The notes: generated by a model not told the origin, from the letters alone. A stretch of 18,667 bases of DNA from a virus (IMGVR_UViG_2563366869_000001); one strand, 5' to 3'; counted from the first letter of the stretch, positions 1,392 to 18,667 are shown. Made by a program: numbers and translations.

Positions 1392-1696
1392 TATTTCACC
1401 TCTTGCTGTGTCATTGTTGAAAAATGGATACCAGCTCGTTGCTGCCAGACGATCCAACCGAGAGTCATATCCCATGCCATGTATTCGTTATCGCCGTTTT
1501 TTGCTCTCCGACGATCTACTAAGTCACCGAAACGCTTTTCCATGAATAATTCATAGGCTTCGCGTTCAACTGGCTCTACTTCCAGAGATACGAGTGCGAT
1601 TTCATAAGCACGGCGCTCAATATCGTCTCGAACCTCTAGGCTGCTGATTCGTTCTTTGATTTCTTTAATCAGTTCTTTATTGGTAAATGTGGTCAT
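1391..1696 (-). CDS. Hypothetical phage protein (101 aa)
   Basis: ORF translationally coupled on both sides by stop/start overlaps within the leftward operon; no recognisable motif. Confidence 0.6.
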   Translation of the reverse strand: MTTFTNKELIKEIKERISSLEVRDDIERRAYEIALVSLEVEPVEREAYELFMEKRFGDLVDRRRAKNGDNEYMAWDMTLGWIVWQQRAGIHFSTMTQQEVK

Positions 1697-2058: not shown

Positions 2059-2585
2059 TTGCGTAACTCCGATAAATCGTTAAAACGTTCCATAAACATC
2101 CCGTAGGCATGACCCGGTGCCAGTGGAATCACGTTGAACATCTCTGTTGCCGGGATGCCTTCCAGTACAGGCCAGAAAGAGCCATCATCAAGCCCGAGAT
2201 CGCGGCGTTCGGTTGCCAGCATGATGAGATCGGCATATTTCACGGGTGTACTCATAACTGGGGGTAACCCGTATTTCTCACGGATTACGGCGTCTATTTT
2301 TTCTTCCATCCGTTTATAGTCAGGAAGAAGGCGTTTCAGTGGTGCGGGAATGTCCTGGCAATACGCTTCTGTTGCATCATGCATTAACGCTTCAAAAGCA
2401 AATTCCTGCGGCACCAGCTGGCTGCAAAGAACCGCATGTTGGGCGACGCTGTAGAAGTGCGAAAGATGACCGGCAAAGCGACAGATATTTGAAAGGGAAA
2501 CCGCGATATCGTTAATATCGATGTCGTCTTTATTTATCTTGTCATAATAAAAATGCTTCCCGGAAAAAGTTTTAATAAATGACAT
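2049..2585 (-). CDS. HD-domain phosphohydrolase (YfdR-like, CPS-53 prophage family)
   Basis: His/Asp motifs (FAGHLSHFYSVAQHAV, EALMHDATEAY) typical of HD hydrolases; start at internal ATG 2585..2583 with SD GGAG, giving MSFIKTFSGKHFYY (178 aa). Confidence 0.8.
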   Translation of the reverse strand: MSFIKTFSGKHFYYDKINKDDIDINDIAVSLSNICRFAGHLSHFYSVAQHAVLCSQLVPQEFAFEALMHDATEAYCQDIPAPLKRLLPDYKRMEEKIDAVIREKYGLPPVMSTPVKYADLIMLATERRDLGLDDGSFWPVLEGIPATEMFNVIPLAPGHAYGMFMERFNDLSELRKCA

Positions 2586-2678
2586 TTTGTTCTCCACGTA
2601 TATGCACTGCACCGCGCTGAATTCTGGTAAAAGGAAGCCCTCACCATCCGGTGATTATTGAGTTAATTACGTTTCCAT

Positions 2679-2700
2679 AAATGCCCCCGCAGGGGCATTT
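2679..2700 (-). other. Intergenic stem-loop (9-bp stem AAATGCCCC/GGGGCATTT, 4-nt loop) between yfdQ-like and yfdR-like genes
   Basis: Perfect inverted repeat seen directly; no strong U-tract on either strand, so more likely an RNA processing or stability element or attenuator than a strong terminator. Confidence 0.3.
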
Positions 2701-2712
2701 GCAGTAATGAAA

Positions 2713-3537
2713 TCAGGCGGTGAAAGTACCAATAAAGGTTTCTACTTTGCTGTCTTTGAATTTCTCAACAAGCAGATCACGAAATTCGTTAGCCATTTCT
2801 TCCTGCACCGCTTCCAGCTGAATAATGCGCAGAACCAGTACAGGACGATCGCCAGTGATAATGCTGAGGCGTAATTTAAACGGACGTTCTTTCAGACCTT
2901 CAAACGGAACGCATTTAAATTCAAATGCCACTGGCATAATGTCTTTGGTCTTCGCTTCGACAGACTCCATCAGGGAGCGTTTGCCGCTGAAGTCATTATC
3001 TTCAAAATCAGCGGTCTGGTTTGCTTCAATCGTGATTTTACGGACTGCCGCAGCCGCTTTTGTTGCTTGAATGGCGTCACCATTAGCATCAAAGCCCACA
3101 AGGTAGTCGGCCCAGTCTTCGATCCATTCTGCCAGTGACTTCTGGGAGTTACGCTCGCCGTTAACAGACAACAGAGCAGAGAACGGTGCTGTCTTTTTCA
3201 GTTTGAGAGTGGCAGTGTTATCTGCGTGACCTGGCTCATCAATAGTACCCAGGTTAAGCACACTGACGGCACGCATATTATCGGCATCGATAAAGCAGCG
3301 GGTGCCTTCATCTGCAAGATCTTTAGAATAACGGGTAAAATCATCGATGCTGGCAGTGGAAAGTGCACCACGGAAACGGAAGCGATTTAAATTAAATTTT
3401 TCCAGATCATGAATGCGGAAATTCTCAGGCAATGCCACAGCATCGGCACCAATCTTACTGATAATTTCATTAACACCCTGAGCAGAAATAAGGGCATGGA
3501 TTTGATTAATTGCGGTTGCGTCTAAGTTCTGAGACAT
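2713..3537 (-). CDS. YfdQ-like protein (DUF2303 family), 274 aa
   Basis: Full-length ORF with SD GAGGA 7 nt upstream; sequence recalled as similar to E. coli CPS-53 prophage YfdQ. Confidence 0.8.
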
Positions 3538-3602
3538 AATAAGTCCTCACTATATAAAGATATTCAGTGATGAGATAAATAATCAGTTTATTACGAACGA
3601 TA

Positions 3603-3965
3603 TTAACGACCTGCTGCGCGGAGTTTTCCGTCAGGTTCACCGGCAAGAGTCAGTAATTGTCCCTGGTCTTCCTGCAGAATAGTCAGGCGACCACCGCGAT
3701 TGACATACATCGGCGTTTCGGTGGTGTCTTCTTCGGAAATTTTCCCGCGGTTAGTCGGGCGAATATATGAGAGTTTGTGTTTGATTTTCACACGGTTCTC
3801 ATCAAATGGTTCGATTTCCAGGTTGAGTGAGACCTTACCTTTGGTTTTCGTGTTCATCACACCGGAAGCGACTTCACTGAGAACTGCGCCGATTTTGGTT
3901 TCAAATACGCCGCCGTCCAGCTCCCCGATAAATGCCTGCACATCAGTACTGCGTTCGCTAGCCAT
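3603..3965 (-). CDS. YfdP-like small protein (120 aa)
   Basis: Start assigned to ATG 3965..3963 (MASERSTDVQ...) preceded by SD GAGGAG at 7-nt spacing; the longer upstream extension in the ORF track has non-protein-like composition. Confidence 0.75.
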   Translation of the reverse strand: MASERSTDVQAFIGELDGGVFETKIGAVLSEVASGVMNTKTKGKVSLNLEIEPFDENRVKIKHKLSYIRPTNRGKISEEDTTETPMYVNRGGRLTILQEDQGQLLTLAGEPDGKLRAAGR

Positions 3966-4013
3966 TTTGCTGCTCCTCATCATATCGACCCTGCAAGGCC
4001 GATTAGTTTCTCC

Positions 4014-4102
4014 ACAAAACAGAGAAGAACACCTGTGGTGGCCGCCGCCCGGATGGATTGGGTTATGAGCCCGTCGTCCGGTGATGCTCTTCTCTGTTTT
4101 GT
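4014..4102. repeat. 15-bp perfect inverted repeat (ACAAAACAGAGAAGA / TCTTCTCTGTTTTGT) enclosing a 59-bp GC-rich segment
   Basis: Arms at 4014..4028 and 4088..4102 are exact reverse complements; lies in a non-coding leader upstream of the leftward operon. Confidence 0.7.
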
Positions 4103-4110
4103 AAAAAGGA

Positions 4111-4147
4111 CGGTACCAGCCGGAAGCAAGGGTACAAGCTGGTACCG
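4111..4147. repeat. 10-bp inverted repeat (CGGTACCAGC / GCTGGTACCG) with 17-nt loop
   Basis: Seen directly at 4111..4120 and 4138..4147; adjacent to three GGTGCC direct repeats (4175..4197) and a GCCTGG/CCAGGC stem (4195..4219). Confidence 0.6.
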
Positions 4148-4373
4148 CCAGGACTACACACAGCATAAAGTTGTGGTGCCGGGTGCCTCCCGGTGCCTGG
4201 CGAAGGTTGCACACCAGGCGGGTGGGTATCCACAGAAGGTCGACTGTCAGCCTCAACCTTAACCCGCGTGCGCTGAGCCGCATTCACCACAACGCTAAGG
4301 ATTCTCTCTGGTTGAAAATACTTAGCTGTTATGTGCCTGCTTTTAGCCACATCAGGCGAGGTGGACCTGGTTA

Positions 4374-4421
4374 TTCCCCAACAACAAGGATTCGGTTAAT
4401 CTGGATATCCCCAACAACAAT
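4374..4421 (+). repeat. Two direct copies of TCCCCAACAACAA spaced 34 bp apart, immediately upstream of the orf164 start
   Basis: Exact 13-mer at 4374..4386 and 4408..4420; the second copy ends about 14 nt before the candidate GTG start. Confidence 0.6.
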
Positions 4422-4434
4422 AAGAGTATTCAAT

Positions 4435-4950
4435 GTGATCGCTGAATTAACGGCAGCAATGACGGCTATTCGTGAAACAGCCCAGATTGCAAAACTAATG
4501 AACGAGGCAAAAACTCAAGCTGAAGTAAATGCGGCTATTGGTGAGCTGAACTCAAAGCTTGCGTCTATTCAGCGCGAATGCGTGTCTCTCGTTGAACTGG
4601 TGGGCTCTTATCAAGAAATAAATGCTTCTCTCAAAGCTAAAATTGCAGAATTCGAAAACTTTGAGGCTCAGACGGAAGGCTATATCCTTAACCAACTTGA
4701 GTCGGGTACTTTTGTATACTCGAAGGAGGTAATCGTGAACGGTGGCAGCATAACCATGCATCTTTGCCCAAAATGTTTTGGACAAAAGATAGTATCGATA
4801 CTTCAACCATTCCCGGTTAGCGAAGATGAGCTTTTTCATAAAAGCAGGTGCCTCCACTGTGAAAATAAGTTTCTGATGAATAAAAATCCGGATTACGTAT
4901 CGCCTCCATCCATTGAGGAGTTGTCCAGAAAACTTAACGGCAATCTGTAG
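4435..4950 (+). CDS. Hypothetical protein: N-terminal coiled-coil-like region plus C-terminal C4 zinc-ribbon (CPKC-x24-CLHC); convergent to cI
   Basis: Protein-like composition begins near GTG 4435 (AAGAG SD at 8-nt spacing) or ATG 4459; the upstream part of the track ORF (from 4171) is Arg/His/Trp-rich and GC-rich, so likely non-coding. Start is uncertain. Confidence 0.6.
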   Translation: MIAELTAAMTAIRETAQIAKLMNEAKTQAEVNAAIGELNSKLASIQRECVSLVELVGSYQEINASLKAKIAEFENFEAQTEGYILNQLESGTFVYSKEVIVNGGSITMHLCPKCFGQKIVSILQPFPVSEDELFHKSRCLHCENKFLMNKNPDYVSPPSIEELSRKLNGNL

Positions 4951-4987
4951 ATTACTACTGTTGTGGATATCCAGATTGTTAAAGAGC

Positions 4988-5012
4988 TAAGCGTCCTGTA
5001 GGGCGCTTTTTT
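4988..5012 (+). terminator. Rho-independent terminator downstream of orf164
   Basis: Stem AGCGTCC/GGGCGCT with 4-nt loop followed by TTTTTT, 38 nt after the TAG stop at 4948..4950; oriented for plus-strand transcripts only. Confidence 0.65.
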
Positions 5013-5094
5013 GTTGCTAACGAATCATCCTGGACTTCATATGCCCCAGGCGGCTACTTCGTGGGCGTCCTGCCTGTTCGTTATCTTTGATATA

Positions 5095-5124
5095 AAATCT
5101 AACTTAACTTAGTTATCATGACAA
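5095..5124 (-). promoter_or_regulatory. Candidate pL-like leftward promoter with overlapping operator motif AACTTAGTT
   Basis: On the minus strand: -35 TTGTCA (5124..5119), 18-bp spacer, -10 TAGATT (5100..5095); the 9-mer AACTTAGTT (5106..5114) in the spacer recurs at the pR side (5883..5891). By-eye prediction. Confidence 0.35.
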
Positions 5125-5177
5125 GAGAAAACACCAAACTTTTCTTGGTTCGGTGCCTTAGTTAGAGAAGAGAGGTC

Positions 5178-5804
5178 TTAGAGTTCGTATTGAACTCCTT
5201 TGACTACACCAATGATAAGGCAATTACCATTGATAGGGATGTTGGGATACCGAGGATTTAATGGCACTAAAAACTTTTGAGGGCCATCGATGACTAATTT
5301 TTTTACTGTAGCTTCGTTTGTTCCATCAAGTCGAGCGATGACTATTTTTCCATGACGAGGTTCTGCATCTGGATCTACAATCACTGTTGCGCCTTCTGGT
5401 ATTGTTGGGAGGCCATTAGGGTTAGTCATGGAGTCACCTTTAACCTCTAATGCAAATGAGTTATCACCAACCTTTAATGATGTATCTACCCACTTGTCCA
5501 CTTCACTAAACACTTCTGCTGCCCTGCACTCAGTAAACTGCCCAGCCTGAACCCACGATATTACAGGAACTCTGCGCATGTTTGTGACGAGTTTGCCTTC
5601 AAACTCAGCACCGTAAAGAATGTAATCTATTGACGTATTGAAGAACTTCGCTAATTTCGAAAGTGCCTCCCCGCCAGGGGTATTGATGTCTTTCTCCCAG
5701 TACCCCACAGCAACGTCGCTTACTCCACAAAATTTACCCAATTCTTTCTGGGACGTTCTGGTAACTCTTCTCAGAGCTTTTATACGCTGACCAACCGTTT
5801 CCAT
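5178..5804 (-). CDS. CI-like prophage repressor (N-terminal HTH plus C-terminal LexA/S24-type autopeptidase domain)
   Basis: 208-aa ORF; HTH near QKELGKFCGVSDVAVGYWE; C-terminal region with Ser (GDSM) and Lys (TVKKL) spaced as in the S24 catalytic dyad; divergent from a cro-like gene. Confidence 0.9.
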   Translation of the reverse strand: METVGQRIKALRRVTRTSQKELGKFCGVSDVAVGYWEKDINTPGGEALSKLAKFFNTSIDYILYGAEFEGKLVTNMRRVPVISWVQAGQFTECRAAEVFSEVDKWVDTSLKVGDNSFALEVKGDSMTNPNGLPTIPEGATVIVDPDAEPRHGKIVIARLDGTNEATVKKLVIDGPQKFLVPLNPRYPNIPINGNCLIIGVVKGVQYEL

Positions 5805-5826
5805 AGGAGCACCATTTCTTTAATCG

Positions 5827-5891
5827 CTAAGTAATCTTAGTTTTTATTGACCAAAGATAGATTTGTAATTAGCATCTAACAAAACTTAGTT
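5827..5891 (+). promoter_or_regulatory. Immunity-region operator/promoter (pR-like; pRM probably overlaps on the opposite strand)
   Basis: Palindrome CTAAGTAATCTTAG (5827..5840); -35 TTGACC (5847..5852), 17-bp spacer, -10 TAGCAT (5870..5875); AACTTAGTT at 5883..5891; cro SD GGAGGG follows. Confidence 0.5.
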
Positions 5892-5901
5892 TGGAGGGCG
5901 T

Positions 5902-6102
5902 ATGACAACTGACGATATCGAAAGCTACTTCGGCAGTATTGAGAAAGTTGCTGCTTTTTTCGGCATAACAACTGAAGCCGTTTATCAGTGGCGAAACCGT
6001 CCGGGCCAGTTAATTCCAAAAGGACGTGCAGCAGAAGCTGCATATAGAACTTGCGGACGGTTGCCATTTAAACCTGAGCTTTATGAAAAATCTAATGGAT
6101 AA
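5902..6102 (+). CDS. Cro-like small HTH regulator (YdaS-like)
   Basis: 66-aa ORF divergent from cI; HTH-like VAAFFGITTEAVYQWRN; strong SD GGAGGG. Confidence 0.85.
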   Translation: MTTDDIESYFGSIEKVAAFFGITTEAVYQWRNRPGQLIPKGRAAEAAYRTCGRLPFKPELYEKSNG

Positions 6103-6691
6103 ATCGATTAACAGAAACCACAGAACGATGAGGCTAACCGTGGGTAAGCATCACTGGAAAGTAGAAAAACAGCCTGAGTGGTACGTGAAAGCTGTCAGAA
6201 AAACTATCGCAAAGTTGCCGGGTGGTTACGCTGAAGCAGCTGACTGGCTGGATGTAACAGAGAACGCATTATTTAACCGCCTTCGTGCCGATGGCGATCA
6301 GATTTTCCCGCTGGGATGGGCAATGATTTTGCAACGTGCTGGTGGAACTCACTTCATTGCTGACGCAGTGGCGCAGTCTGCAAATGGCGTCTTTGTGTCT
6401 CTTCCTGACGTCGAGGATGTGGACAACGCCGATATTAACCAGCGCCTGCTGGAAGTCATTGAACAGATCGGCAGTTATTCAAAACAGATTCGTTCAGCAA
6501 TTGAAGACGGTGTAGTGGAACCGCATGAGAAGACAGCAATTAACGACGAGCTGTACCTCTCAATTTCGAAGCTGCAGGAGCATGCAGCACTGGTCTACAA
6601 AATTTTTTGCATTTCAGAAAGTAATGACGCCCGCGAGTGTGCAGCTCCGGGCGCCGTGGCGTGTCGTGACTGTGGAGAAACTAACGCATGA
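6083..6691 (+). CDS. YdaT-like protein (CII-analog regulator family, from memory)
   Basis: ORF immediately after cro, overlapping its end; start ambiguous between ATG 6083, ATG 6095 and a later Met; followed by an ATGA-coupled downstream gene. Confidence 0.7.
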
Positions 6692-7026
6692 ACAGTTTAA
6701 CAACACACTACCGTCGCTCGCAACTGATTGCGCTTCCTGTACCGGGTGGAAAAGCGAAGGTGGAATATTGCTATGCAGTGAATGTACCAGGTGACAGGGA
6801 AATTGTAACCCACAGCTTTGCAGAGTGGGCTGTGGGTGATTTCAACCGGCAGAAGGAGACAGTCCTTTGCGACAAGTTAACCGCTGGTTCAAAGATCACT
6901 ACGGAGTACCCGTCAGAGTCATTCGTTGGGAGCCGGAAACACAACGGGTTATCTACCTCCGCGAAGGCTATGAGCATGAGTGCTTCAGCCCGCTCGAACA
7001 GTTTCGTCGTAAATTCAGGGAAATAG
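6688..7026 (+). CDS. Hypothetical protein (112 aa)
   Basis: ATG overlaps the ydaT-like stop (ATGA coupling); ends 9 nt before the SD of the O-like gene; no recognisable motif; overlapping alternative-frame ORFs exist. Confidence 0.45.
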
Positions 7027-7035
7027 AGGTCGGTC

Positions 7036-7992
7036 ATGAGCACTAAATTAACCGGCTATGTATGGGATGGTTGCGCTGCGTCAGGCATGAAGTTATCCAG
7101 CGTGGCAATTATGGCCCGCCTGGCTGATTTCAGTAATGACGAAGGTGTGTGCTGGCCATCAATTGAAACCATTGCACGCCAGATTGGCGCGGGGATGAGT
7201 ACCGTCAGAACGGCTATCGCACGGCTGGAAGCAGAAGGCTGGTTAACGCGTAAGGCGCGTCGCCAGGGTAACCGCAATGCGTCGAATGTTTATCAGCTTA
7301 ACGTTGCGAAGCTTCAGGCAGCGGCATTTTCTCAACTGTCAGATTCTGACCCGTCAAAATCTGACCCGTCAAAATCTGTCCCGTCAAAATCTGTCCCGTC
7401 AAAATTTGATGCGTCGAAATCTGGTAAAAAAGCGGGTTTTCACCCGTCAGAATCTGGCGGGGATCCGTCAGTAAAATCAAAACATGATCCGTCAGATAAA
7501 AAAACTTCTCGTCCGGACGCTTCGCAACCGGACACGCAGACGGATGAACAGGATTTTTTAACTCGCCATCCTGATGCGGTTGTATTCAGCCCTAAAAAGC
7601 GCCAGTGGGGGACGCAGGATGATTTGACCTGCGCACAGTGGCTCTGGAAAAAAATCATCGCCCTGTACGAGCAGGCTGCCGAATGTGACGGCGAGGTGGT
7701 TCGTCCCAAAGAACCGAACTGGACAGCCTGGGCAAACGAAATTCGCCTGATGTGTGTGCAGGATGGTCGTACTCACAAACAAATCTGCGAGATGTACAGC
7801 CGCGTCAGCCGCGATCCGTTCTGGTGCCGTAACGTGCTCAGCCCGTCGAAGCTGCGGGAAAAATGGGATGAGCTTTCCCTGCGCTTATCGCCGTCCGTCA
7901 GCACGTACACAGAAAAACGCGAAGACCCGTACTTCAAAGCCAGTTACGACAATGTGGACTACAGCCAGATCCCGGCAGGATTCAGGGGGTGA
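7036..7992 (+). CDS. Replication initiator, lambda O-like (N-terminal HTH; origin iterons inside the gene)
   Basis: 318-aa ORF with SD GAGG; N-terminal HTH-like segment (PSIETIARQIGAGMSTVRTAIARLEAEGWL); the DPSKS/VPSKS peptide repeats are encoded by DNA iterons, as the lambda ori is within O. Confidence 0.8.
   Translation: MSTKLTGYVWDGCAASGMKLSSVAIMARLADFSNDEGVCWPSIETIARQIGAGMSTVRTAIARLEAEGWLTRKARRQGNRNASNVYQLNVAKLQAAAFSQLSDSDPSKSDPSKSVPSKSVPSKFDASKSGKKAGFHPSESGGDPSVKSKHDPSDKKTSRPDASQPDTQTDEQDFLTRHPDAVVFSPKKRQWGTQDDLTCAQWLWKKIIALYEQAAECDGEVVRPKEPNWTAWANEIRLMCVQDGRTHKQICEMYSRVSRDPFWCRNVLSPSKLREKWDELSLRLSPSVSTYTEKREDPYFKASYDNVDYSQIPAGFRG
7345..7419. repeat. Origin-type iterons: four tandem 15-bp repeats TCTG(A/T)CCCGTCAAAA plus a degenerate fifth; further CCGTCAG copies to about 7500, then an A-rich tract
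   Basis: Exact tandem copies at 7345, 7360, 7375, 7390; degenerate copy at 7405; embedded in the O-like gene. Confidence 0.8.
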
Positions 7993-7994
7993 GC

Positions 7995-8483
7995 ATGAGT
8001 CTTTTGAATGACGTTCAGAAATTCATTGAAGCCCATCCGGGCTGTACTTCCGGAGACATTGCGGATGCTTTTGCAGGTTACTCACGGCAGCGCGTTCTGC
8101 AGTCAGCAAGCAAGTTACGTCAGAGTGGGCGTGTGGCTCACCGTTGTGAAGGAGATACACGCAGACATTTCCCGCGCCTGACTGAGAGAGCGCAGGATCC
8201 GGAACCACAACCAGTTCGTGAAACCAGACCTGTGCGCAATTTCTATGTCGGCACTAACGACCCGCGGGTGATTTTGTGCCTGACCCGCCAGGCGGAAGAA
8301 CTGGAGTCCAGGGGCTTATACCGTCGTGCTGCAACGGTGTGGATGGCGGCATTCCGTGAAAGCCACTCCCAGCAAGAGCGAAACAATTTTCTTGCGCGTC
8401 GTGAGCGGTGTTTACGGAAAAGCAGCAAGCGCGCTGTATCGGGTGAAGAGTGGTATCTGTCAGGGAATTACGTGGGGGCTTAA
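7995..8483 (+). CDS. Hypothetical protein (162 aa) in the position of lambda P; possible N-terminal winged-helix
   Basis: ATG 7995 with SD GGGGGTGA, overlapping the O-like stop; Arg-rich C-terminus; no helicase-loader motifs recognised. Confidence 0.65.
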   Translation: MSLLNDVQKFIEAHPGCTSGDIADAFAGYSRQRVLQSASKLRQSGRVAHRCEGDTRRHFPRLTERAQDPEPQPVRETRPVRNFYVGTNDPRVILCLTRQAEELESRGLYRRAATVWMAAFRESHSQQERNNFLARRERCLRKSSKRAVSGEEWYLSGNYVGA

Positions 8484-8809
8484 TGACGACGTTAACTCAA
8501 TGCCAGCAGCAGGTGCTGGATATGCTGATTTCTTACCAGAAAGAACGTGGCTTCCCGCCAACCAATCAGGAGGTGGCTACCATGCTGGGATACCGTTCAG
8601 TGAATGCAGCGGTGGAGCATCTTCGCGCACTGGAGAAAAAAGGCGTCATCACGATAAAGCGTGGCGTGGCCCGGGGCATCACGCTTCATACCGCGGTGAA
8701 GGACGACGACAGCGAGGTGGCCGGGATTATCCGCGCACTGCTTGCTGGTGAGGAAAACGCCAGGCTGCGTGCAGCCCACTGGTTACATGAGAGGGGGCTG
8801 AAAGTATGA
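8483..8809 (+). CDS. LexA-like N-terminal DNA-binding-domain-only protein (108 aa), no S24 peptidase domain
   Basis: MTTLTQCQQQVLDMLISYQKERGFPPTNQEVATMLGYRSVNAAVEHLRALEKKGVITIKRGVARGITL aligns nearly residue-for-residue with the E. coli LexA N-terminal domain ([65 protein letters not shown]), from memory; TAATG coupling upstream, ATGA coupling to rusA. Confidence 0.8.
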   Translation: MTTLTQCQQQVLDMLISYQKERGFPPTNQEVATMLGYRSVNAAVEHLRALEKKGVITIKRGVARGITLHTAVKDDDSEVAGIIRALLAGEENARLRAAHWLHERGLKV

Positions 8810-9195
8810 AGCTGATTCTGCCTTTTCCACCCAGCGTGAACACCTACTGGCGACACCCCAACAAAGGGGCATTTGCTGGTAAGAGCCTGATAAGCGAGGC
8901 GGGGCGAAAATTCCAGAGTGCGGCGTGCACAGCAATAGTTGAGCAGTTACGTCGTCTGCCGAAACCAACGTCGGCACCTGCTTCAGTGGAGATCGTGTTG
9001 TTTCCCCCGGATAACCGGATCCGCGATCTGGACAACTATAACAAGGCGCTGTTTGACGCCCTGACCCACGCGGGTGTGTGGGAAGACGACAGCCAGGTGA
9101 AAAGAATGCTGGTGGAGTGGGGACCGGTTATCCCGGAAGGGAAGGTCGAGATCACTATCAGTAAGTACGAGAAAACGGCGGGTGCAGCCGCCTGA
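8806..9195 (+). CDS. rusA: RusA-family Holliday-junction resolvase
   Basis: 129-aa ORF; RusA-like motifs (LPFPPSVNTYWRH, DLDNYNKALFDALT) recalled from E. coli RusA. Confidence 0.85.
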   Translation: MKLILPFPPSVNTYWRHPNKGAFAGKSLISEAGRKFQSAACTAIVEQLRRLPKPTSAPASVEIVLFPPDNRIRDLDNYNKALFDALTHAGVWEDDSQVKRMLVEWGPVIPEGKVEITISKYEKTAGAAA

Positions 9196-9214
9196 TCAAG
9201 AGGAGAAACGAAGT

Positions 9215-10012
9215 ATGAATAATCTGATGGTCATTGATGGTATTGAAGTTCGTCGTGATGCTTATGGGCGTTACAGCCTGAACGATCTGCACAGGGCTGC
9301 CGGTTCTCTGGATAAGCATAAGCCTGCATTCTGGCTCCGCAATGAGCAAACTGAACGTTTAATAAGCGAGTTGCAGATTTGCAACTCGGTCAATATAGAG
9401 CCAGTTAACGTTATTCGTGGCGGAAATAACCAGGGGACGTATGTCTGCAAAGAACTGGTGTATGCCTATGCAATGTGGATCAGCCCGTCATTCCATCTGA
9501 AGGTGATCCGTACTTTCGATATGGTAACCAGCGCATCGGAAAAATTATCCGGGCAGGCTGCTGACAAGATGCAGGCTGGCGTGATTCTGCTGGACTTTAT
9601 GCGCCGGGAGTTAAACCTGTCTAACTCTTCAGTGCTTGGTGCCTGTCAGAAACTCCAGGAGGCTGTTGGCTTACCGAATCTGGCACCGCGCTATGCCATT
9701 GATGCTCCTGCTGACGCGCCTGATGGCTCAAGCCGTCCCACGCTGTCACTGAGTGCACTGCTGAAGCAGTATGGTATCCGCCTGACAGCTAATCAGGCAT
9801 ATCACCAGATGGTGAAGCTGGGGATCGTCGAGCAGCGCGAACGATACAGCCGTACCGCGATTAACAACATCAAAAAATTCTGGTCGCTGACAGCGAAAGG
9901 CTGCATGTTCGGCAAGAACATCACCAGTCCCGCAAATCCGCGCGAGACGCAGCCGCATTTCTTCGAATCCCGATTCCCTGAGCTGTTAAAGCTGCTCGAT
10001 ACCGTTCATTGA
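9215..10012 (+). CDS. KilA-N domain protein (antirepressor-like)
   Basis: Start at ATG 9215 with SD AGGAGA; N-terminal KilA-N-like segment (IDGIEVRRDAYGRYSLNDLHRAAG...FWLRNEQTERLISEL). Confidence 0.75.
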   Translation: MNNLMVIDGIEVRRDAYGRYSLNDLHRAAGSLDKHKPAFWLRNEQTERLISELQICNSVNIEPVNVIRGGNNQGTYVCKELVYAYAMWISPSFHLKVIRTFDMVTSASEKLSGQAADKMQAGVILLDFMRRELNLSNSSVLGACQKLQEAVGLPNLAPRYAIDAPADAPDGSSRPTLSLSALLKQYGIRLTANQAYHQMVKLGIVEQRERYSRTAINNIKKFWSLTAKGCMFGKNITSPANPRETQPHFFESRFPELLKLLDTVH

Positions 10013-10013
10013 G

Positions 10014-11009
10014 GTGACCGTGAGAGCACTACTGACCCCTGAAATTGCCCCGCGTATGGGGATCGTATTGTTCAGGCCCGGTTCAGAGCTGATGCCCCTG
10101 TTTATGCAGGGGCGTGTACTGCTGGAGCCTGAGCCGGAGCATTATTCATCTTTCGCCAGTGGTGCCGTTCCCGCGGCATCACAACCGCTGGCGGATGATC
10201 CTGCCGTTCGGGCCGTGTTCCGTAATGAGGCAGTGATCCGTCGTGCTGGTGGGGTGGAATGTCTTGAAAGCTGGTTACTTCGTGAAAAAGGCTGCCAGTG
10301 GCCTCATTCCGACTGGCACAGCGAGAACATGACCACAATGCGACACGCGCCGGGCGCAATCCGTCTGTGCTGGCACTGCGATAATCAGTTACGTGATCAG
10401 TTCACGGAGCGGCTGGAATCAATGGCAACGGATAACTGTGCCCGTTGGGTGTTGTCTGTAGTCCGTCGGGATCTCGATTTTAATGATAACCATGCCGTGA
10501 CAATGCCGGAACTGTGCTGGTGGCTGGTTCGTAATGACCTGGCGGATGCCTTACCGGAAAGCGCAGCCCGTAAGGCACTGAGATTACCGAAGTCTGTTTT
10601 GCCGTCTGTCACCCGGGAAAGTGACCTTGTGCCTTCGGTTCCTGCCACCAGCATTATCCAGGATAAAGCGAAAAAGGTGCTGGCGCTGAAAGTGGATCCG
10701 GAGTCGCCGGAGTCTTTTATGTTACGCCCCAAACGTCGTCGCTGGGTTAATGAACAGTACACGCGCTGGGTTAAGACGCAGCCGTGTGCATGTTGTGGAA
10801 AGCCAGCTGATGATCCGCATCATCTGATAGGCCATGGTCAGGGTGGAATGGGTACAAAAGCGCATGACCTTTTTGGGCTGCCTTTGTGCAGAAAACACCA
10901 CGACGAACTGCATGCGGATACCGTGGCATTTGAAGAGAAGTATGGCTCCCAGCTGGAGCTGATATTTCGTTTTATCGATCGCGCACTGGCGATTGGTGTG
11001 CTGGCCTGA
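10014..11009 (+). CDS. DUF968-family protein (YdfU-like) with C-terminal Cys/His-rich HNH-like motif
   Basis: C-terminal [43 protein letters not shown]; sits immediately upstream of Q as ydfU does next to quuQ in Qin (from memory). Start uncertain (GTG 10014, GTG 10020 or a later ATG). Confidence 0.7.
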
Positions 11010-11026
11010 TTTTGTGGAGAAAGTTA

Positions 11027-11410
11027 ATGCGTGATATTCAGATGGTTCTTGAACGTTGGGGAGCGTGGGCGGCTAATAATCATGAAGATGTGACCTGGTC
11101 GTCCATTGCCGCCGGTTTTAAGGGATTAATTCCTTCAAAAGTAAAATCTCGCCCGCAATGTTGTGACGATGACGCGATGATCATTTGCGGGTGCATGGCC
11201 CGTCTGAAAAAGAACAACAGCGATTTGCACGATTTATTAGTAGATTATTATGTAGTCGGTATGACATTCATGTCACTGGCAGGTAAGCATTGCTGCTCTG
11301 ATGGTTATATCGGGAAAAGGTTACAGAAGGCTGAGGGCATAATTGAAGGGATGTTAATGGCATTAGATATCCGGTTAGAGATGGATATCGTTGTTAATAA
11401 CTCTAATTAA
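11027..11410 (+). CDS. Late-gene antiterminator Q (phage 82 / QuuD-type), 127 aa
   Basis: Start at ATG 11027 with SD GGAGA; Cys-rich region ([27 protein letters not shown]) characteristic of this Q family, from memory. Confidence 0.85.
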
Positions 11411-11425
11411 TATGCCAATTGTTTA

Positions 11426-11461
11426 CTAAAAATTATTAAAAATGGGGCGTTGAGACGCCCC
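11426..11461 (-). terminator. Rho-independent terminator for the porin transcript
   Basis: Stem GGGGCGT/ACGCCCC (11444..11461) followed on the minus strand by AUUUUUAAUAAUUUUU; the plus-strand side is A-rich, so it is unidirectional. Confidence 0.6.
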
Positions 11462-11600
11462 CAAAAATAAAGGGTAATATATAACAGAAGGTTTATATAG
11501 TTAGAAGCAAGGTTGTGCTTCTAAAGGAAGTGGCTTGAGGGAGCCACTTATATGTTGGGGAGGCAACGCCTCCCGCAACATATCTTTTTCGTAATCAGAT
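11462..11600 (-). ncRNA. Candidate sRNA or structured 3' UTR downstream of the porin gene (IpeX-like position)
   Basis: Three consecutive hairpins (11503..11522, 11528..11549, 11558..11574) between the porin stop and its terminator; in DLP12 the sRNA IpeX maps between quuD and nmpC (recalled, not verified). Confidence 0.3.
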
Positions 11601-12697
11601 TAGAACTGGTAAACCAGACCTACAGCAACGATGTCATCAGTGCTTACACCGAGTGCTTTAGTGAAGTCATTTTTGTCAAGCAGGTTGATTTTGTAATCAA
11701 CGAAAGTAGACATATTTTTGTTGAAGTAATAGGTTGCACCTACATCAACATATTTGACTAAGTCCTGATCGCCCCATACTCCAAGATCCTTACCTTTAGA
11801 TTGCAGGTAAGCAACGGACGGACGCAGACCGAAATCGAACTGATATTGTGCAACAGCTTCGAAGTTTTGGGCTTTATTAGCAACGAAGTGATCAGCAAAT
11901 ACAGTCATATTCTGGGTTTCAGAATAGGTAGTGGCCAGGTAAATGTTGTTAGCGTCATATTTCAGACCTGCGGCCCAAACTTCTGCATTTTTACCGGAAG
12001 CAAATACTTCAGGAAGAACTTTCCCTGCATTAACTTGAGTGTCGGTACGATCAGATTTCGCATAAGTTGCACCGATACCGAATCCTTCGTATTCATAGGT
12101 AGCAGAGAAACCGAAGCCATCACCGTTACCTTCAGTGTAGTTATCGAAATCGCTACGATCGTTTTTGCCTTGGTACTGAGCAGCAAAGTTCAGACCATCA
12201 ACCAGACCAAAGAAGTCGTTGTTACGATAGGTTGCAACACCAGTGGTGCGACCAGTCATGAACACATCTGTTTGGGTCCAGGTATCGCCACCGAATTCTG
12301 GCAGAACGTCAGTCCACGCACCGATGTCGTATGCTACACCGTAGTTACGGCCGTAATCGATTGAGCCGTAGTCACCGAATTTCAGGCCTGCAAATGCAAG
12401 ACGGGTTTTGTCTTTGGAGGAACCTTGAGATTCAGCGCGGTTGCCTTTGAATTCATATTCCCACTGACCGAAACCAGTCAGTTGATCGTTGATTTGGGTT
12501 TCACCTTTGAAGCCAAGACGGGCATAAGTAGTATCACCATCATCTGCATCATTAGAGGAGAAGTAGTGCTTAGCATTAACTTTCCCGTACAGATCCAGCT
12601 TGTTACTGTCTTTATTATAAATTTCAGCTGCCTGAGCAGACATCGCCATCAGTACTGATGCAGCTACAGCAGAAATTGCCACTGTTAATTTTTTCAT
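11600..12697 (-). CDS. Phage-encoded OmpC-family general porin (Lc/NmpC-type), with signal peptide
   Basis: Start at ATG 12697 ([30 protein letters not shown]); C-terminal aromatic residue (…VGLVYQF); porin sequence characteristic throughout; encoded opposite to Q and the lysis genes. Confidence 0.92.
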
Positions 12698-13124
12698 CGT
12701 GAGCCCTTTTTTTGAACTATTATTAAAAAATGATGTCACTGCGCGATAAATATTCATCTAATCAATGTGATTATTTCAAGATGTAAGTTTTGGTTTCTCG
12801 TTTGATTTGTGAAGTAGATCTCTATTTTTATCTGAACTTTTTTCTATCGAATCCTATTCATAGCTCTTTGCTGAATAAAAATAAATCTATTAGCCAATTT
12901 ATATTAACGGCTGTTATTTATAAGCGCTCTATAATTTGAGGGTTCAATTTAAATAAGCTAAAAATAACACTGGAAATAATTTGTTGGTTATTTGTTGAGA
13001 TTTGCTTATGTATTTGTAGTGGTGTTTTCAATACTCGGTAGCATTCTCGCAAATATCATTTAGTGGTTTACGTACGTAAAAAATTGGTTATGCTGTTAAG
13101 AGTGGTTACTTCGTCACACAGCTT

Positions 13125-13158
13125 AAACCCGCCGTCGAGCGGGTTTTTCCATTTTTTG
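13125..13158 (+). terminator. Strong rho-independent terminator 115 bp upstream of the holin; probable tR' target of Q
   Basis: Stem AAACCCGC/GCGGGTTT with 6-nt loop followed by TTCCATTTTTT; no ORF between it and the upstream AT-rich region, as for the lambda pR'-tR' short transcript. Confidence 0.7.
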
Positions 13159-13269
13159 AGTCTCGATATTAGCTGATAACCCAATACCTGAGTTATTCAC
13201 TGACTCCGAGTCTGTTACGTTTCGTAGTATTCCCTCAATTTACACCCGCTTTGTCTGCGAGGTGGGGTT

Positions 13270-13485
13270 ATGAAATCCATGGATAAGTTAACAACGGGTG
13301 TCGCCTATGGCACCTCAGCAGGTAGTGCCGGGTACTGGTTTTTACAGCTGCTAGATAAAGTCACGCCCTCACAGTGGGCGGCAATTGGAGTGCTGGGTAG
13401 CCTGGTATTTGGCCTGCTGACGTACCTGACAAACCTTTATTTCAAGATTAAAGAAGATAAGCGCAAGGCTGCGAGAGGTGAATAA
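13270..13485 (+). CDS. Class II holin (phage 21 S-type pinholin) with dual-start motif
   Basis: [26 protein letters not shown]... with two in-frame ATGs (13270 and 13279), two TMDs and a charged C-terminus; from memory near-identical to S21. Confidence 0.9.
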
Positions 13486-13982
13486 TGTCGCCATCATTAC
13501 GCAAGGCTGTAGCAGCTGCTATTGGTGGTGGGGCTGTTGCCATAGCGTCTGTGCTCATCACTGGTCCGAGTGGTGACGATGGTCTGGAAGGTGTCAGCTA
13601 CATACCATATAAAGATATTGTTGGTGTATGGACTGTATGTCACGGGCATACAGGAAAAGACATCATGCTCGGTAAAACGTATACCAAAGCAGAATGCAAA
13701 GCACTCTTGAATAAAGACCTTGCCACTGTCGCCAGACAAATTAACCCGTACATCAAAGTCGATATACCGGAAACAACGCGCGGCGCTCTTTACTCATTCG
13801 TTTACAACGTGGGTGCTGGCAATTTCAGAACATCGACGCTTCTTCGCAAAATAAACCAGGGCGATATCAAAGGCGCATGTGATCAGCTACGTCGCTGGAC
13901 ATATGCTGGCGGTAAGCAATGGAAAGGTCTCATGACTCGTCGTGAGATTGAGCGTGAAATCTGTTTGTGGGGTCAGCAATGA
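13485..13982 (+). CDS. SAR endolysin (lysozyme, GH24-type) with N-terminal signal-anchor-release segment
   Basis: Gly/Ala-rich weakly hydrophobic N-terminus ([20 protein letters not shown]) followed by lysozyme-like core; TAATG coupling to the holin. Confidence 0.9.
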
Positions 13983-14440
13983 ACAGAGTAACAGCGATTA
14001 TCTCCGCTCTGGTTATCTGCATCATCGTCGGCCTGTCATGGGCTGTTAATCATTACCGTGATAACGCCATTACCTACAAAGCCCAGCGCGACAAAAATGC
14101 CAGAGAACTGAAGCTGGCGAACGCGGCAATTACTGACATGCAGATGCGTCAGCGTGATGTTGCTGCGCTCGATGCAAAATACACGAAGGAGTTAGCTGAT
14201 GCGAAAGCTGAAAATGATGCTCTGCGTGATGATGTTGCCGCTGGTCGTCGTCGGTTGCACATCAAAGCAGTCTGTCAGTCAGTGCGTGAAGCCACCACCG
14301 CCTCCGGCGTGGATAATGCAGCCTCCCCCCGACTGGCAGACACCGCTGAACGGGATTATTTCACCCTCAGAGAGAGGCTGATCACTATGCAAAAACAACT
14401 GGAAGGAACCCAGAAGTATATTAATGAGCAGTGCAGATAG
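13979..14440 (+). CDS. Rz inner-membrane spanin (i-spanin)
   Basis: ATG overlapping the endolysin stop (ATGA); N-terminal TMD then coiled-coil-like periplasmic domain. Confidence 0.88.
14199..14381 (+). CDS. Rz1 outer-membrane lipoprotein spanin (o-spanin), embedded in Rz in the +1 frame
   Basis: Lipobox LVVVGC, Pro-rich mature region ([16 protein letters not shown]); SD GGAG 8 nt upstream; fully nested within Rz. Confidence 0.88.
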
Positions 14441-14471
14441 AGCTGCCCATATCGATGGGCAACTCATGCAA

Positions 14472-14765
14472 TTATTGTGAGCAATACACACGCGCTTCCA
14501 GCGGAGTATAAATGCCTAAAGTAATAAAACCGAGCAATCCATTTACGAATGTTTGCTGGGTTTCTGTTTTAACAACATTTTCTGCGCCGCCACAAATTTT
14601 GGCTGCATCAACAGTTTTCTCCTGTCCAATTCCCGAAACGAAGAAGTGATGGGTGATGGTTTCCTTTGGTGTTACTGCTGTCGGTTTGTTTCCAACAGTA
14701 AACGTCTGTTGAGCACATCCTGTAATAAGCATTGCCAGAGCGGCAGAAAACAACATTTTTTTCAT
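14472..14765 (-). CDS. bor: Bor lipoprotein (serum-resistance moron)
   Basis: Start at internal ATG 14765 (MKKMLFSAALAMLITGC, lipobox); sequence near-identical to lambda Bor from memory. Confidence 0.9.
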   Translation of the reverse strand: MKKMLFSAALAMLITGCAQQTFTVGNKPTAVTPKETITHHFFVSGIGQEKTVDAAKICGGAENVVKTETQQTFVNGLLGFITLGIYTPLEARVYCSQ

Positions 14766-15124
14766 CTTATTATCCTGCATTGTTAAAAACGGCAGAATCC
14801 TATGTGACAACAATTAAACGATAGTTAAATGGATTGATGAAAATTAAAACTATATAGGTGGATGCTCAGCCTATTGGAGGAGGGGGGCACTCAGAATCCT
14901 GTGGAATGAAATAAACCGCTCTTTCTGTCCATTACCCTTTTAGCTGCGCTGTATCGTCGCCGTATTCCCGCATTAACCATGACCGTAGCCCGACGGGGAA
15001 TTCCTTCTGCGTGAGTGTGCGGGAATAATCAAAAACGATGCACACCGGGTTTTACTGTGCTGACAGACGCAGGGTTACCCTCATAGTCGCTTTTCCGGTG
15101 CGATGGTGGAAGAAACCGGGATGT

Positions 15125-15319
15125 TTATTCATCATCACTTTGGATTGATGTATATGCTCTCTTTTCTGACGTTAGTCTCCGGCGGCAGGCTTCAATGACC
15201 CAGGCTGAGAAATTCCCGGACCCTTTTTGCTCAAGAGCGATGTTAATTTGTTCAATCATTTGGTTAGGAAAGCGGATGTTGCGGGTTGTTGTTCTGCGGG
15301 TTCTGTTCTTCGTTGACAT
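15125..15319 (-). CDS. Small ribbon-helix-helix (CopG/Arc-like) DNA-binding protein, 64 aa
   Basis: Basic N-terminal strand then two helices (TRNIRFPNQMIEQINIALEQ...NFSAWVIEACRRRL); SD GGGG upstream; last gene before the cos site. Confidence 0.6.
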   Translation of the reverse strand: MSTKNRTRRTTTRNIRFPNQMIEQINIALEQKGSGNFSAWVIEACRRRLTSEKRAYTSIQSDDE

Positions 15320-15479
15320 GAGGTTGCCCCGTATTCAGTGTCGCTGATTTGTATTGTCTGAAGTTTTTTTTACGTTAAGTTGATGCAGATCAATTAATAC
15401 GATACCTGCGTCATAATTGATTATTTGACGTGGTTTGATGGCGTAGATGCACGTTGTGACATGTAGATGATAATTATTA

Positions 15480-15700
15480 TCATTTTGCGGGTCCTTTCCG
15501 GCGATCCGACAGGTTACGGGGCGGCGACCTCGCGGGTTTTCGCTATTTATGAAAATTTTCCGGTTTAAGGCGTTTCCGTTCTTCTTCGTCATAACTTAAT
15601 GTTTTTATTTAAAATACCCTCTGAAAAGAAAGGAAACGACAGGTGCTGAAAGCGAGCTTTTTGGCCTCTGTCGTTTCCTTTCTCTGTTTTTGTCCGTGGA
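15480..15700 (+). other. cos packaging site (cosQ-cosN-cosB), lambda-type; cosN 12-nt cohesive-end sequence GGGCGGCGACCT at 15519..15530
   Basis: From memory, sequence across ...GGGTCCTTTCCGGCGATCCGACAGGTTACG|GGGCGGCGACCTCGCGGGTTTTCGCTATTTATGAAAATTTTCCGG... matches the joined right and left ends of lambda; immediately upstream of Nu1. Confidence 0.85.
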
Positions 15701-15707
15701 ATGAACA

Positions 15708-16253
15708 ATGGAAGTCAACAAAAAGCAGCTGGCTGATATTTTCGGTGCGAGTATCCGTACCATTCAGAACTGGCAGGAGCAGGGAATGCCCGTTCTGCGA
15801 GGCGGTGGCAAGGGTAATGAGGTGCTTTATGATTCTGCCGCCGTCATAAAATGGTATGCCGAAAGGGATGCTGAAATTGAGAACGAAAAGCTGCGCCGGG
15901 AAGTTGAAGAACTGCGGCAGGCCAGCGAGACAGATCTCCAGCCAGGGACTATTGAGTACGAACGCCATCGACTTACGCGTGCGCAGGCCGACGCACAGGA
16001 GCTGAAAAATGCCAGAGACTCCGCTGAAGTGGTGGAAACCGCATTCTGTACTTTCGTGCTGTCGCGGATCGCAGGTGAAATTGCCAGTATTCTCGACGGG
16101 ATCCCCCTGTCGGTGCAGCGGCGTTTTCCGGAACTGGAAAACCGACATGTTGATTTCCTGAAACGGGATATCATCAAAGCCATGAACAAAGCAGCCGCGC
16201 TGGATGAACTGATACCGGGGTTGCTGAGTGAATATATCGAACAGTCAGGTTAA
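15708..16253 (+). CDS. nu1: Terminase small subunit Nu1 (near-identical to lambda Nu1; NohA-type)
   Basis: 181-aa ORF MEVNKKQLADIFGASIRTIQNWQEQGMPVLRGGGKGNEVLYDSAAVIKWYAER... matches lambda Nu1 from memory with a few substitutions. Confidence 0.93.
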   Translation: MEVNKKQLADIFGASIRTIQNWQEQGMPVLRGGGKGNEVLYDSAAVIKWYAERDAEIENEKLRREVEELRQASETDLQPGTIEYERHRLTRAQADAQELKNARDSAEVVETAFCTFVLSRIAGEIASILDGIPLSVQRRFPELENRHVDFLKRDIIKAMNKAAALDELIPGLLSEYIEQSG

Positions 16254-16539
16254 CAGGCTACGGCATTTTGTCCGCGCCGGGCTTCGCTCACTGTTCAGGC
16301 CGGAGCCACAGACCGCCGTTGAATGGGCGGATGCTAATTACTATCTCCCGAAAGAATCCGCATACCAGGAAGGGCGCTGGGAAACACTGCCCTTTCAGCG
16401 GGCCATCATGAATGCGATGGGCAGCGACTACATCCGCGAGGTGAATGTGGTGAAGTCTGCCCGTGTCGGTTACTGGTGCTTTATGGCAGCGCACATCGAC
16501 AGGGTTTACAAATTTTGCCTGGGTCAATACATCTGGTGA
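16228..16539 (+). pseudogene. Terminase large subunit A, N-terminal fragment only (about 82 lambda-like codons, then unrelated read-through to a stop)
   Basis: [82 protein letters not shown] matches lambda gpA; homology ends at about 16472, after which the frame runs into tail-fibre sequence. Confidence 0.85.
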
Positions 16540-17404
16540 TACTTACGATATTTACGTTGCAATCGGAAATTATGCGACTGGTGTAAATATTCAATGGGAT
16601 TATACCAGTAATGCCAGCGTGACGATTCATACGTCACCAGCATATTCTGCTAATAAGCCGGAAGGGTTAACGGACGGTACAGTTTATTCACTCTATACGC
16701 CATCAGAGCAGTTTTATCCGCCTGGCGCACCAATCCCGTGGCCATCAGATACCGTTCCGTCTGGCTATGCCCTGATGCAGGGGCAGACTTTTGACAAATC
16801 TGCATACCCGAAACTTGCAGCCGCTTATCCGTCAGGCGTGATCCCTGATATGCGTGGCTGGACGATTAAGGGCAAACCTGCCAGTGGTCGGGCCGTATTG
16901 TCTCAGGAACAGGACGGCATTAAATCGCATACCCACAGCGCCAGCGCATCCAGTACGGATTTGGGGACGAAAACCACATCGTCGTTTGATTACGGCACTA
17001 AATCCACGAATAACACTGGTGCGCATACCCATAGTTTAAGTGGCAGCACGAATGCAGCTGGTAATCACAGCCATAGAGATGGCCGTCGATTTAACCCCAG
17101 TGTTTTTAAAGATACTTATCAATATGGTTATACAAGCTCAGGTCAAAATACCTGGGGTGTACAAGGCTCAGTAGGTATGTCTACGGGGTGGTTAGCGAAT
17201 ACCAGTACAGATGGTAATCATAGCCATTCACTGTCCGGCACAGCAGCATCTGCAGGTGCACACGCGCATACTGTCGGTATTGGTGCTCATACGCACTCCG
17301 TTGCGATTGGTTCACATGGACACACCATCACCGTTAACGCTGCTGGTAACGCGGAAAACACCGTCAAAAACATCGCATTTAACTATATTGTGAGGCTTGC
17401 ATAA
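16473..17404 (+). pseudogene. Side tail fibre (Stf) C-terminal fragment, about 310 codons, with no native start
   Basis: Ends ...[19 protein letters not shown] as lambda Stf does; His-rich HxH repeats typical of the Stf C-terminus; begins abruptly at the junction with the terminase fragment, in a different frame. Confidence 0.8.
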
Positions 17405-17979
17405 TGGCATTCAGAATGAGTGAACAACCACGGACCATAAAAATTTATAATCTGCTGGCCGGAACTAATGAATTTATTGGTGAAGGTGACGCATATATTC
17501 CGCCTCATACAGGTCTGCCAGCAAACAGTACCGATATTGCACCACCAGATATTCCTGCTGGCTTTGTGGCTGTTTTCAACAGTGATAAGGCATCGTGGCA
17601 TCTCGTTGAAGACCATCGGGGTAAAACGGTTTATGACGTAGCGTCAGGGGACGCGTTATTTATTTCTGAACTCGGTCCGTTACCGGAAAATGTTACCTGG
17701 TTATCGCCGGAAGGGGAGTTTCAGAAGTGGAACGGCACAGCCTGGGTGAAAGATGCAGAAGCAGAAAAACTGTTCCGGATCCGAGAGGCGGAAGAAACAA
17801 AAAACAGCCTGATGCAGGTAGCCAGTGAGCATATTGCGCCACTTCAGGATGCTGTAGATCTGGAAATCGCAACGGAGGAAGAAACCTCATTGCTGGAAGC
17901 CTGGAAAAAGTATCGGGTGTTGCTGAACCGTGTTGATACGTCAACTGCACAGGATATTGAATGGCCAGCACTGCCGTAG
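17404..17979 (+). CDS. tfa: Tail fibre assembly protein Tfa
   Basis: 191-aa [57 protein letters not shown]... matches lambda/Rac Tfa from memory; ATG overlaps the stf stop. Confidence 0.88.
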
Positions 17980-18076
17980 GGTAAAACATATAAATTCTAT
18001 AATTAGATGTATCTTTCCATTTACGGCAAGGAAGGGGGCTTGGAAGACGTAAAGCATCTCACACCGAGATTATTTT

Positions 18077-18667
18077 TTATATGTCAGGTGTCTGAAGTTT
18101 TGCTTTGGCTCTTAAAATGGTTTGCCGCGAGGTTTTGAATTCCCGGGCAATGGCACTTATACTTACACCTGACTTAATTCGTTCGAATACCACCTGTTTC
18201 TGTTCTTCATTTAACACAGGTGGTCGACCAAAACGTTTCCCTGCGCCGCGGGCTCTTACTATCCCGGAATGAGTGCGTTCAAGTAAAAGGTCTCGTTCAA
18301 ATTCAGCGACTGCTGAAATTACGTGCATCATCATTTTTCCTGTTGGACTGGTCAGGTCAATGCCCCCCAATGCTAAGCAATGCACTCTGATACCTGTTTC
18401 GGTCAGTTGTTCCACTGTTTTCCTGATATCCATTGCATTACAACCAAGGCGATCCAGTTTTGTCACAATCAATTGATCACCACATTTCAGGCGAGCAAGC
18501 AACCGGTTAAAACCAGGACGCTCACTGGTTGCTGCTGAGCCGCTAATGTGTTCTTCGATTATTTGCTGAGGTTTGATTTTAAAACCTGCACTTTCGATTT
18601 CCCGGCGTTGATTTTCGATGGTCTGATCCAGCGTTGATATCCGACAGTAAGCAAAAATTCGAGACAT
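18077..18667 (-). CDS. pin: Pin-family serine DNA invertase (PinR/PinQ-like)
   Basis: 196-aa ORF with resolvase/invertase N-terminal catalytic motif (YCRISTLDQ, Ser10) and C-terminal HTH; start codon is the last three bases of the window. Confidence 0.9.

Follow-up and report, generated by a model that had tools for sequence, protein, structure and literature searches.

Lysis genes of phage 21, lambda and DLP12

The lysis pathway of phage 21, in which pinholes collapse the proton-motive force (PMF), the SAR endolysin is released and the spanins act last, is established (PMC9636201). The genes concerned (OL657228, 39866-41036) encode proteins of 71, 165, 153 and 60 amino acids, and the records of both phage 21 and phage 434B annotate two starts for the holin gene, giving S71 antiholin and S68 holin. 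Phage lambda uses the same four-gene logic in S105/S107-R-Rz/Rz1: its holin has a dual start, its two-component spanin is embedded, bor follows downstream, and late transcription depends on Q. Lambda S, however, is a class I holin with three TMDs that makes micron-scale holes, lambda R is a cytoplasmic transglycosylase without a SAR domain, and S21 cannot replace lambda S (PMC9636201). A further homologue, essD-rrrD(ybcS)-rzpD/rzoD, is found in the DLP12 prophage of E. coli K-12, and this copy has already been studied with regard to its control by Q, RpoE and Hha and its effects on biofilm and vesicles. In the clear-plaque phage 434B, Q, the late promoter and the lysis region have been replaced by a syntenic DLP12 segment (Feiss et al., PMC9119081), and the K-12 DLP12 and 434B cassettes show 0 differences over 1171 nt.

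The DNA analyzed here (the window) is a stretch of 18,667 nucleotides from a virus (IMGVR_UViG_2563366869_000001), in which ORF listing and translation give four uninterrupted reading frames, S, R, Rz and Rz1, at positions 13270-14440 on the plus strand. Gene order, all four protein lengths, the overlaps, the MKSM motif of the holin and the embedded Rz1 are those of phage 21, and a gap-free alignment of the two cassettes (1171 nt) shows 93.7% identity. Upstream sequences are unrelated, with homology beginning 1 nt before the S ATG, and the interval between Q and S contains tRNA genes in phage 21 but an antisense porin gene in the window element. The K-12 DLP12 cassette is 95.7% identical to that of the window (50 nt differences); the S proteins are identical, whereas R, Rz and Rz1 differ at four, six and one residues, respectively, and K-12 Rz starts with GTG.

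Integration site and late gene order are also those of the DLP12 family. The window begins with intD, which is 99.4% identical to K-12 intD, and in E. coli E15, which is 99.9% identical across the window, the element lies at the tRNA-Arg gene argU between fimZ and ompT/envY, the same site as that of K-12 DLP12. The late segment, comprising quuD, the porin gene (nmpC), essD, rrrD, rzpD/rzoD, bor, ylcI, nohD and a terminase stub, is collinear with K-12 at 96.1-98.7% identity. BLAST comparison of the early region (1260-10991) with K-12 DLP12, however, gave no match, and the decay events of K-12 (IS3, IS5 and the aaaD'-tfaD junction) are absent from the window, which has no IS and a different junction. 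K-12 DLP12 is much more decayed; its porin gene, intact in the window, is disrupted by IS5 (the homologue in E. coli B is broken by IS1). We therefore regard the window as a DLP12-family argU prophage and not as the K-12 relic itself, and, judged from sequence, positions 13270-14440 are the canonical phage-21-type lysis cassette of such a lambdoid prophage.

Over 91% of window positions 1-12700, the element is 98.3% identical to PhiR29_1 and PhiR29_2, which were deposited as 46-kb phage genomes. PhiR30_1 (99.7% identical) was considered as functional proof and set aside, because a 1-nt gap truncates Rz and Rz1 and the porin gene is split, perhaps through sequencing errors. The O-like replication gene of the early region contains 5.3 tandem copies of the 15-bp unit TCTGACCCGTCAAAA (window 7345-7423), which are probably origin iterons. 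The length of this gene, 957 bp in the window against 942 bp in E15 and 927 bp in strain A15, suggests that iteron copy number varies.

Predicted products of the four lysis genes

The first gene, S (essD; 13270..13485, +), encodes a predicted phage-21-type class II holin of 71 residues, which matches PF04971 with 121 bits (cut-off 26; E=2e-35) over 63 of 64 profile positions. Its N-terminus reads MKSMDK, with M1-K2-S3-M4 the same as in S21, so that initiation at Met1 would give the S71 antiholin, bearing one N-terminal positive charge more, and initiation at Met4 (13279) the S68 pinholin. Two uncharged stretches follow. Residues 7-28 are SAR-like (mean Kyte-Doolittle (KD) hydropathy 0.70; 55% G/A/S/T), and residues 31-58 are more hydrophobic (mean KD 1.15) and keep G40, S44 and G48, the positions of the G40xxxS44xxxG48 zipper of TMD2 in S21. 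K-12 EssD and phage 434B S have the same amino acid sequence as the S protein of the window, which shares 61 of its 71 residues (86%) with S21 and departs from it by 10 mostly conservative substitutions, including W27L and Q30K; synonymous sites in this comparison are saturated. By homology to S21 (PMC9636201), S would be expected to form heptameric pinholes of ~2 nm that depolarize the membrane and do not release cytoplasmic endolysin. PGAP calls essD of the full-length prophages in strains A15 and 00-3076 from the second Met (207 bp) although the upstream ATG is present, and EssD of these prophages differs from window S at one residue.

R (rrrD; 13485..13982, +; 165 aa) is predicted to be a SAR endolysin of the GH24, T4-lysozyme-like muramidase type (PF00959, E=1.3e-45). 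It is identical at 161 of 165 positions (97.6%) to RrrD (PDB 4zpu), and likewise to R21 (3hde), and has the catalytic triad E35, D44 and T50 in the E-x8-D-x5-T arrangement of lysozymes. Preceded by R6 and K7, the uncharged N-terminal segment 8-30 consists to 65% of G/A/S/T, as expected of a SAR domain, and departs from R21 at I18V alone. Substitutions relative to both R21 and RrrD (P2S, I18V and N31D) are conservative and lie in or beside this segment, and all three are also present in the identical R protein of the full-length prophage of E. coli ARS-C301. Sec export, membrane tethering and PMF-sensitive release are taken over from R21 and would apply to R by this near-identity.

The i-spanin gene Rz (rzpD; 13979..14440, +) encodes 153 aa from its ATG (PF03245, E=2.6e-54); an in-frame GTG at 13967 gives a longer ORF, and the ATG is the start used in annotated homologues. 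The protein has an N-terminal TMD at residues 4-24 as well as Cys99 and Cys152, and is identical to phage 21 Rz at 149 of 153 positions, with G18 in the TMD where phage 21 has C. Rz1 (rzoD; 14199..14381, +; 60 aa; PF06085, E=2.9e-20), the predicted o-spanin lipoprotein, lies wholly within Rz in the +1 frame, the offset of the two starts (14199-13979) being 1 modulo 3. It has a VVGC lipobox in which Cys20 is followed by Thr-Ser, with no inner-membrane retention signal (no Asp at +2), together with Cys29 and 10 Pro among its 41 mature residues, and is identical to phage 21 Rz1 at 60 of 60 positions. Residue 34 of Rz1 is Arg in K-12 RzoD and 434B Rz1 (KPPRPP) and Pro in the window and phage 21 (KPPPPP), a change that is synonymous in the overlapping Rz frame.

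All four proteins score well above the Pfam gathering cut-offs, and PHROGs families for holin, endolysin and Rz-like spanin are also matched; on these profile scores, the match to a four-gene lysis module far exceeds chance. The identities proposed in an earlier note on this DNA (a pinholin with a dual start, a SAR endolysin, and Rz with a nested Rz1) are thus borne out by open reading frames and by agreement between Pfam and PHROGs. The same is true of its claim that the starts are coupled. At the S/R overlap GAATAATGTCG, the last A of the S stop codon TAA is the first base of the R ATG (TAATG), and at the R/Rz overlap CAATGAAC the R stop codon TGA overlaps the Rz ATG (ATGA). As a pinholin/SAR-endolysin/spanin system, the cassette is textbook and already known. 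Rfam and tRNA scans gave no match in or beside the cassette and no tRNA genes between Q and S. Of the 28 Arg codons in S, R and Rz (window 13270-14440), 8 are the rare codons AGA or AGG, which are decoded by the tRNA from argU, the same gene that serves as attachment site for the prophage; Garcia-Contreras and colleagues are said to have proposed, in 2008, a tie between rare tRNAs and the DLP12 lysis genes.

Q, the neighboring genes and the predicted course of lysis

Upstream of the cassette, an intact gene for the late-gene antiterminator Q (quuD; 11027..11410, +; PF06530, E=9.8e-54) is 98.7% identical in nucleotide sequence to K-12 quuD, and shows 30% identity to Q of phage 21. A candidate tR'-like terminator, consisting of a hairpin (11550..11591, +; -21.3 kcal/mol, z = -5.7) followed by CUUUUU, sits ~140 nt past the Q stop codon, and the terminator scan detects a second, putative intrinsic terminator (13125..13160, +; -12.2 kcal/mol, z = -1.95) ~110 nt upstream of S. 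The presence of two terminator-like hairpins on the sense strand between Q and S fits antitermination control. The same interval contains an intact cargo gene for an NmpC/OmpC-type porin in antisense orientation (11600..12697, -). Because the order Q-porin-S is also found in isolated phages, read-through of an antisense porin gene is normal for this phage group. Directly downstream of the cassette lies a second cargo gene, encoding a bor/iss serum-resistance lipoprotein (14472..14765, -; PF06291, E=6.4e-31), which is annotated as iss in E15.

A scan for the sigma-70 consensus from the Q stop codon (11410) to S revealed no late promoter site. Inspection by eye picks out TTGAGA (11450-11455) and TAATAT (11475-11480), which, with a spacer of 19 nt, are unconvincing as a promoter, and the 434B record has no promoter annotated for its DLP12-derived segment. 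We therefore infer the wiring of Q to the cassette from synteny with K-12 and 434B. Given the intact QuuD and the two upstream sense-strand terminators, control of the cassette by Q is plausible. The idea itself is not new, having already been published for the K-12 homologue (Rueggeberg 2013, as relayed in PMC7918800).

The missing promoter consensus, together with the three changes that R carries in or beside its SAR segment and the G18 for C exchange in the TMD of Rz, could be read to mean that the cassette looks intact but is dead, as a result of subtle substitutions or lost expression signals. We consider this scarcely credible. S is the allele that works in 434B, Rz1 is that of phage 21, the R and Rz proteins are the same as those of the full-length ARS-C301 prophage, and nothing has been lost from the catalytic triad, the lipobox or the cysteines.

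The pathway of phage 21, applied to the window allele by near-identity, leads to the following predicted course of events for a working cassette. Q would render late transcription resistant to termination, allowing it to pass the sense-strand terminators and the antisense porin gene and to reach S-R-Rz/Rz1. The two starts of S would then yield S71 antiholin and S68 pinholin, and pinholin would build up in the inner membrane until its weakly hydrophobic TMD1 exits the bilayer and TMD2 assembles the small heptameric pinholes that collapse the PMF. The SAR endolysin, by then already exported by Sec and tethered in inactive form through its Gly/Ala-rich N-terminus, would be freed by this collapse, refold and cut the murein, after which the Rz-Rz1 complex bridging the periplasm would disrupt the outer membrane. 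Since the deletion derivative has the same repressor, cro, Q and cassette as the full-length prophage, induction of the element should still cause lysis, although without the production of particles.

The late-region deletion and retention of the cassette

The description of the element as otherwise defective, made in the earlier note, is correct. Past nohD (Nu1), all that remains of the terminase large-subunit gene is a 245-nt stub (16228..16472, +), ending at the deletion junction (16470-16472, a 3-nt overlap). The stub runs to codon ~82 of terminase-A and is fused to the last ~935 nt, or 3' third, of a tail-fibre gene, which is followed by tfa and a gene for a Pin-like recombinase, and no portal, capsid or tail genes are present in the window. 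The tail-fibre remnant forms a 313-codon fragment with GTG at the junction (16463-17404, +), which would still be transcribed as part of the late operon; tfa is intact (17404-17979, +), and the recombinase gene occupies 18077-18667 (-). A match to Rfam IS009 (226.7 bits; gathering score 117) lies inside the tail-fibre-assembly gene at 17747-17945 (+). Just upstream of the intact nohD, window 15462-15518 matches the right-hand terminus of the phage 21 genome in its linear form (cosQ/cos). The remnant therefore keeps a packaging site and the small terminase subunit, and a helper phage could in principle package it.

The same prophage is present in E. coli ARS-C301 (NZ_CP132983) in a form that is full-length by gene content and free of pseudogene flags, with genes for terminase, portal, protease, decoration, capsid, tail, tape measure, J, lom, tail fibre and tfa. 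ARS-C301, PhiR29_1 and PhiR29_2 all retain the 20.6 kb missing from the window, with its terminase, portal, capsid, tail and tail-fibre genes, and the right-hand neighbors in ARS-C301 (Pin-like recombinase, ydfK, ynfT, methyltransferase and ompT) are as in the window. The window matches ARS-C301 in two blocks, 12641-16472 (3832 nt) with a single mismatch and 16470-18667 (2198 nt) with three; in ARS-C301 they lie 20,592 bp apart, and they overlap by 3 nt at the junction. The cassette is 100% identical to the copies in ARS-C301 and E15, and its flanks show at least 99.86% identity to those in ARS-C301. Full-length versions are also located at argU in strains A15 and 00-3076. When a 200-nt probe across the junction was compared with 5,426 complete E. 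coli genomes, only six contained it (E14, E15, E16, E32, FDN-11 and GPEC1240), all of them chicken isolates. The only gross defect of the element is hence one 20,592-bp deletion downstream of the lysis genes, and the loss of virion genes is a single recent, clone-specific event.

We conclude that a canonical lysis cassette has very probably stayed intact in this element because the virion genes were lost in a single recent microhomology-mediated deletion of 20.6 kb. The element became defective very recently, which left no time for decay of the cassette or for detectable selection. The earlier note had offered two explanations for the retention of lethal genes, recent decay and selection for lysis-dependent release. 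The first is supported directly by the pairing of the window with ARS-C301 and by the occurrence of the junction in 6 of 5,426 genomes, whereas the second is unsupported and, in this case, unneeded. Release of toxins, which the note gave as an example, fails for want of a toxin gene linked to the cassette, the only nearby cargo being porin and bor/iss.

The published work on K-12 nevertheless raises the question of domestication, in which host selection would keep the cassette for a low-level, regulated benefit such as peptidoglycan turnover, curli or biofilm formation, control of outer-membrane vesicles (OMVs), or altruistic lysis that releases DNA or goods. Deletion of the K-12 DLP12 cassette raises OMV production about 4-fold, and the K-12 operon responds to osmolarity, pH and temperature, with control by Q, RpoE and Hha reported (PMC7918800; PMC2408971). 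DLP12 is reported to be present at the locus in 74% of 638 strains (PMC6379469). Low dN/dS values point in the same direction (S has 0 non-synonymous and 4 synonymous differences from K-12, and R has a dN/dS of 0.05), although what is measured against K-12 and phage 21 is selection in phages that circulate, and not in the relic. Full-length prophages and viable phages in circulation carry the compared alleles as well, and low dN/dS therefore reflects phage selection for lysis rather than host benefit. Within the defective state, dN/dS is impossible to compute here, since window and full-length prophage do not differ at any position of the cassette. With flanks that are less than 0.1% diverged, selection has had practically no time to act, and a 1.2-kb target is in any case expected to last long under neutral decay. 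For the window, we therefore hold domestication to be very unlikely; the published K-12 points keep it alive for old relics, where it is already known and is not shown by this element.

A further point that would favor domestication is the survival of S, R, Rz and Rz1 after five independent late-region deletions (the window clone, K-12, E. coli B, LR-45 and E94), a pattern that long-term selection would also predict. In three of these deletions (the window clone, LR-45 and E94), the break in terminase-A falls within the same few nucleotides, ...GTCGGTTA(T/C)(T/C) (window 16465-16472), but the partner joined to it differs each time (two tail-fibre positions and lom). Each right-hand partner carries a short look-alike of the terminase-A sequence followed by GGTGC, and microhomology thus explains the breakpoint pattern. 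The terminase-A site may be a microhomology hot spot, although the shared breakpoint is perhaps partly an artefact, because BLAST matches were ranked by extension past the junction. Deletion by the Pin invertase at the recurrent breakpoint was considered and rejected, since no inverted repeats resembling crossover sites flank the junction. The K-12 junction is different and independent, breaking 62 nt further into terminase-A, and is found in 366 of the 5,426 genomes; in E. coli B, Nu1 is fused to J'. These observations allow a broader proposal to be framed, in which virion-less, lysis-competent argU prophages recur by microhomology deletion from the terminase-A site GTCGGTTATT (three independent events there and two nearby), and the surviving Q, S-R-Rz/Rz1, bor, cos and Nu1 are kept by selection, either as a host-controlled device for envelope remodeling or altruistic lysis or as a helper-packaged cos element. 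We regard this proposal as quite unlikely.

Exchange with incoming lambdoid phages, which would overwrite decayed copies of the cassette, must also be weighed, since the cassette is clearly a mosaic of alleles. Its S gene is of the DLP12 type, differing from K-12 at 4 nt and from phage 21 at 49; Rz, Rz1 and the 3' portion of R are nearer to phage 21 (9 differences past cassette position 341); and codons 2-31 of R represent a third allele. Moreover, 434B gained its DLP12 segment by recombination (PMC9119081), and a genome has cassettes related to this one at a median of 3 places. Such refreshment is not needed, however, to account for the intact genes, and seems highly improbable as the reason for their retention, because the whole 18.7-kb window, beyond the cassette, is collinear with one full-length prophage at 99.9% identity or more. 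The mosaic is therefore older than the deletion.

Beyond correct annotation, the cassette itself is of little significance. The negative result is useful in that a single, very recent deletion explains retention of the lysis genes, and the window offers no evidence for domestication. Moreover, the full-length prophage and its one-deletion derivative form a clean natural pair with the same regulatory and lysis genes, with which one could determine how much fitness a host loses by carrying an inducible prophage whose activation is lethal but yields no particles.
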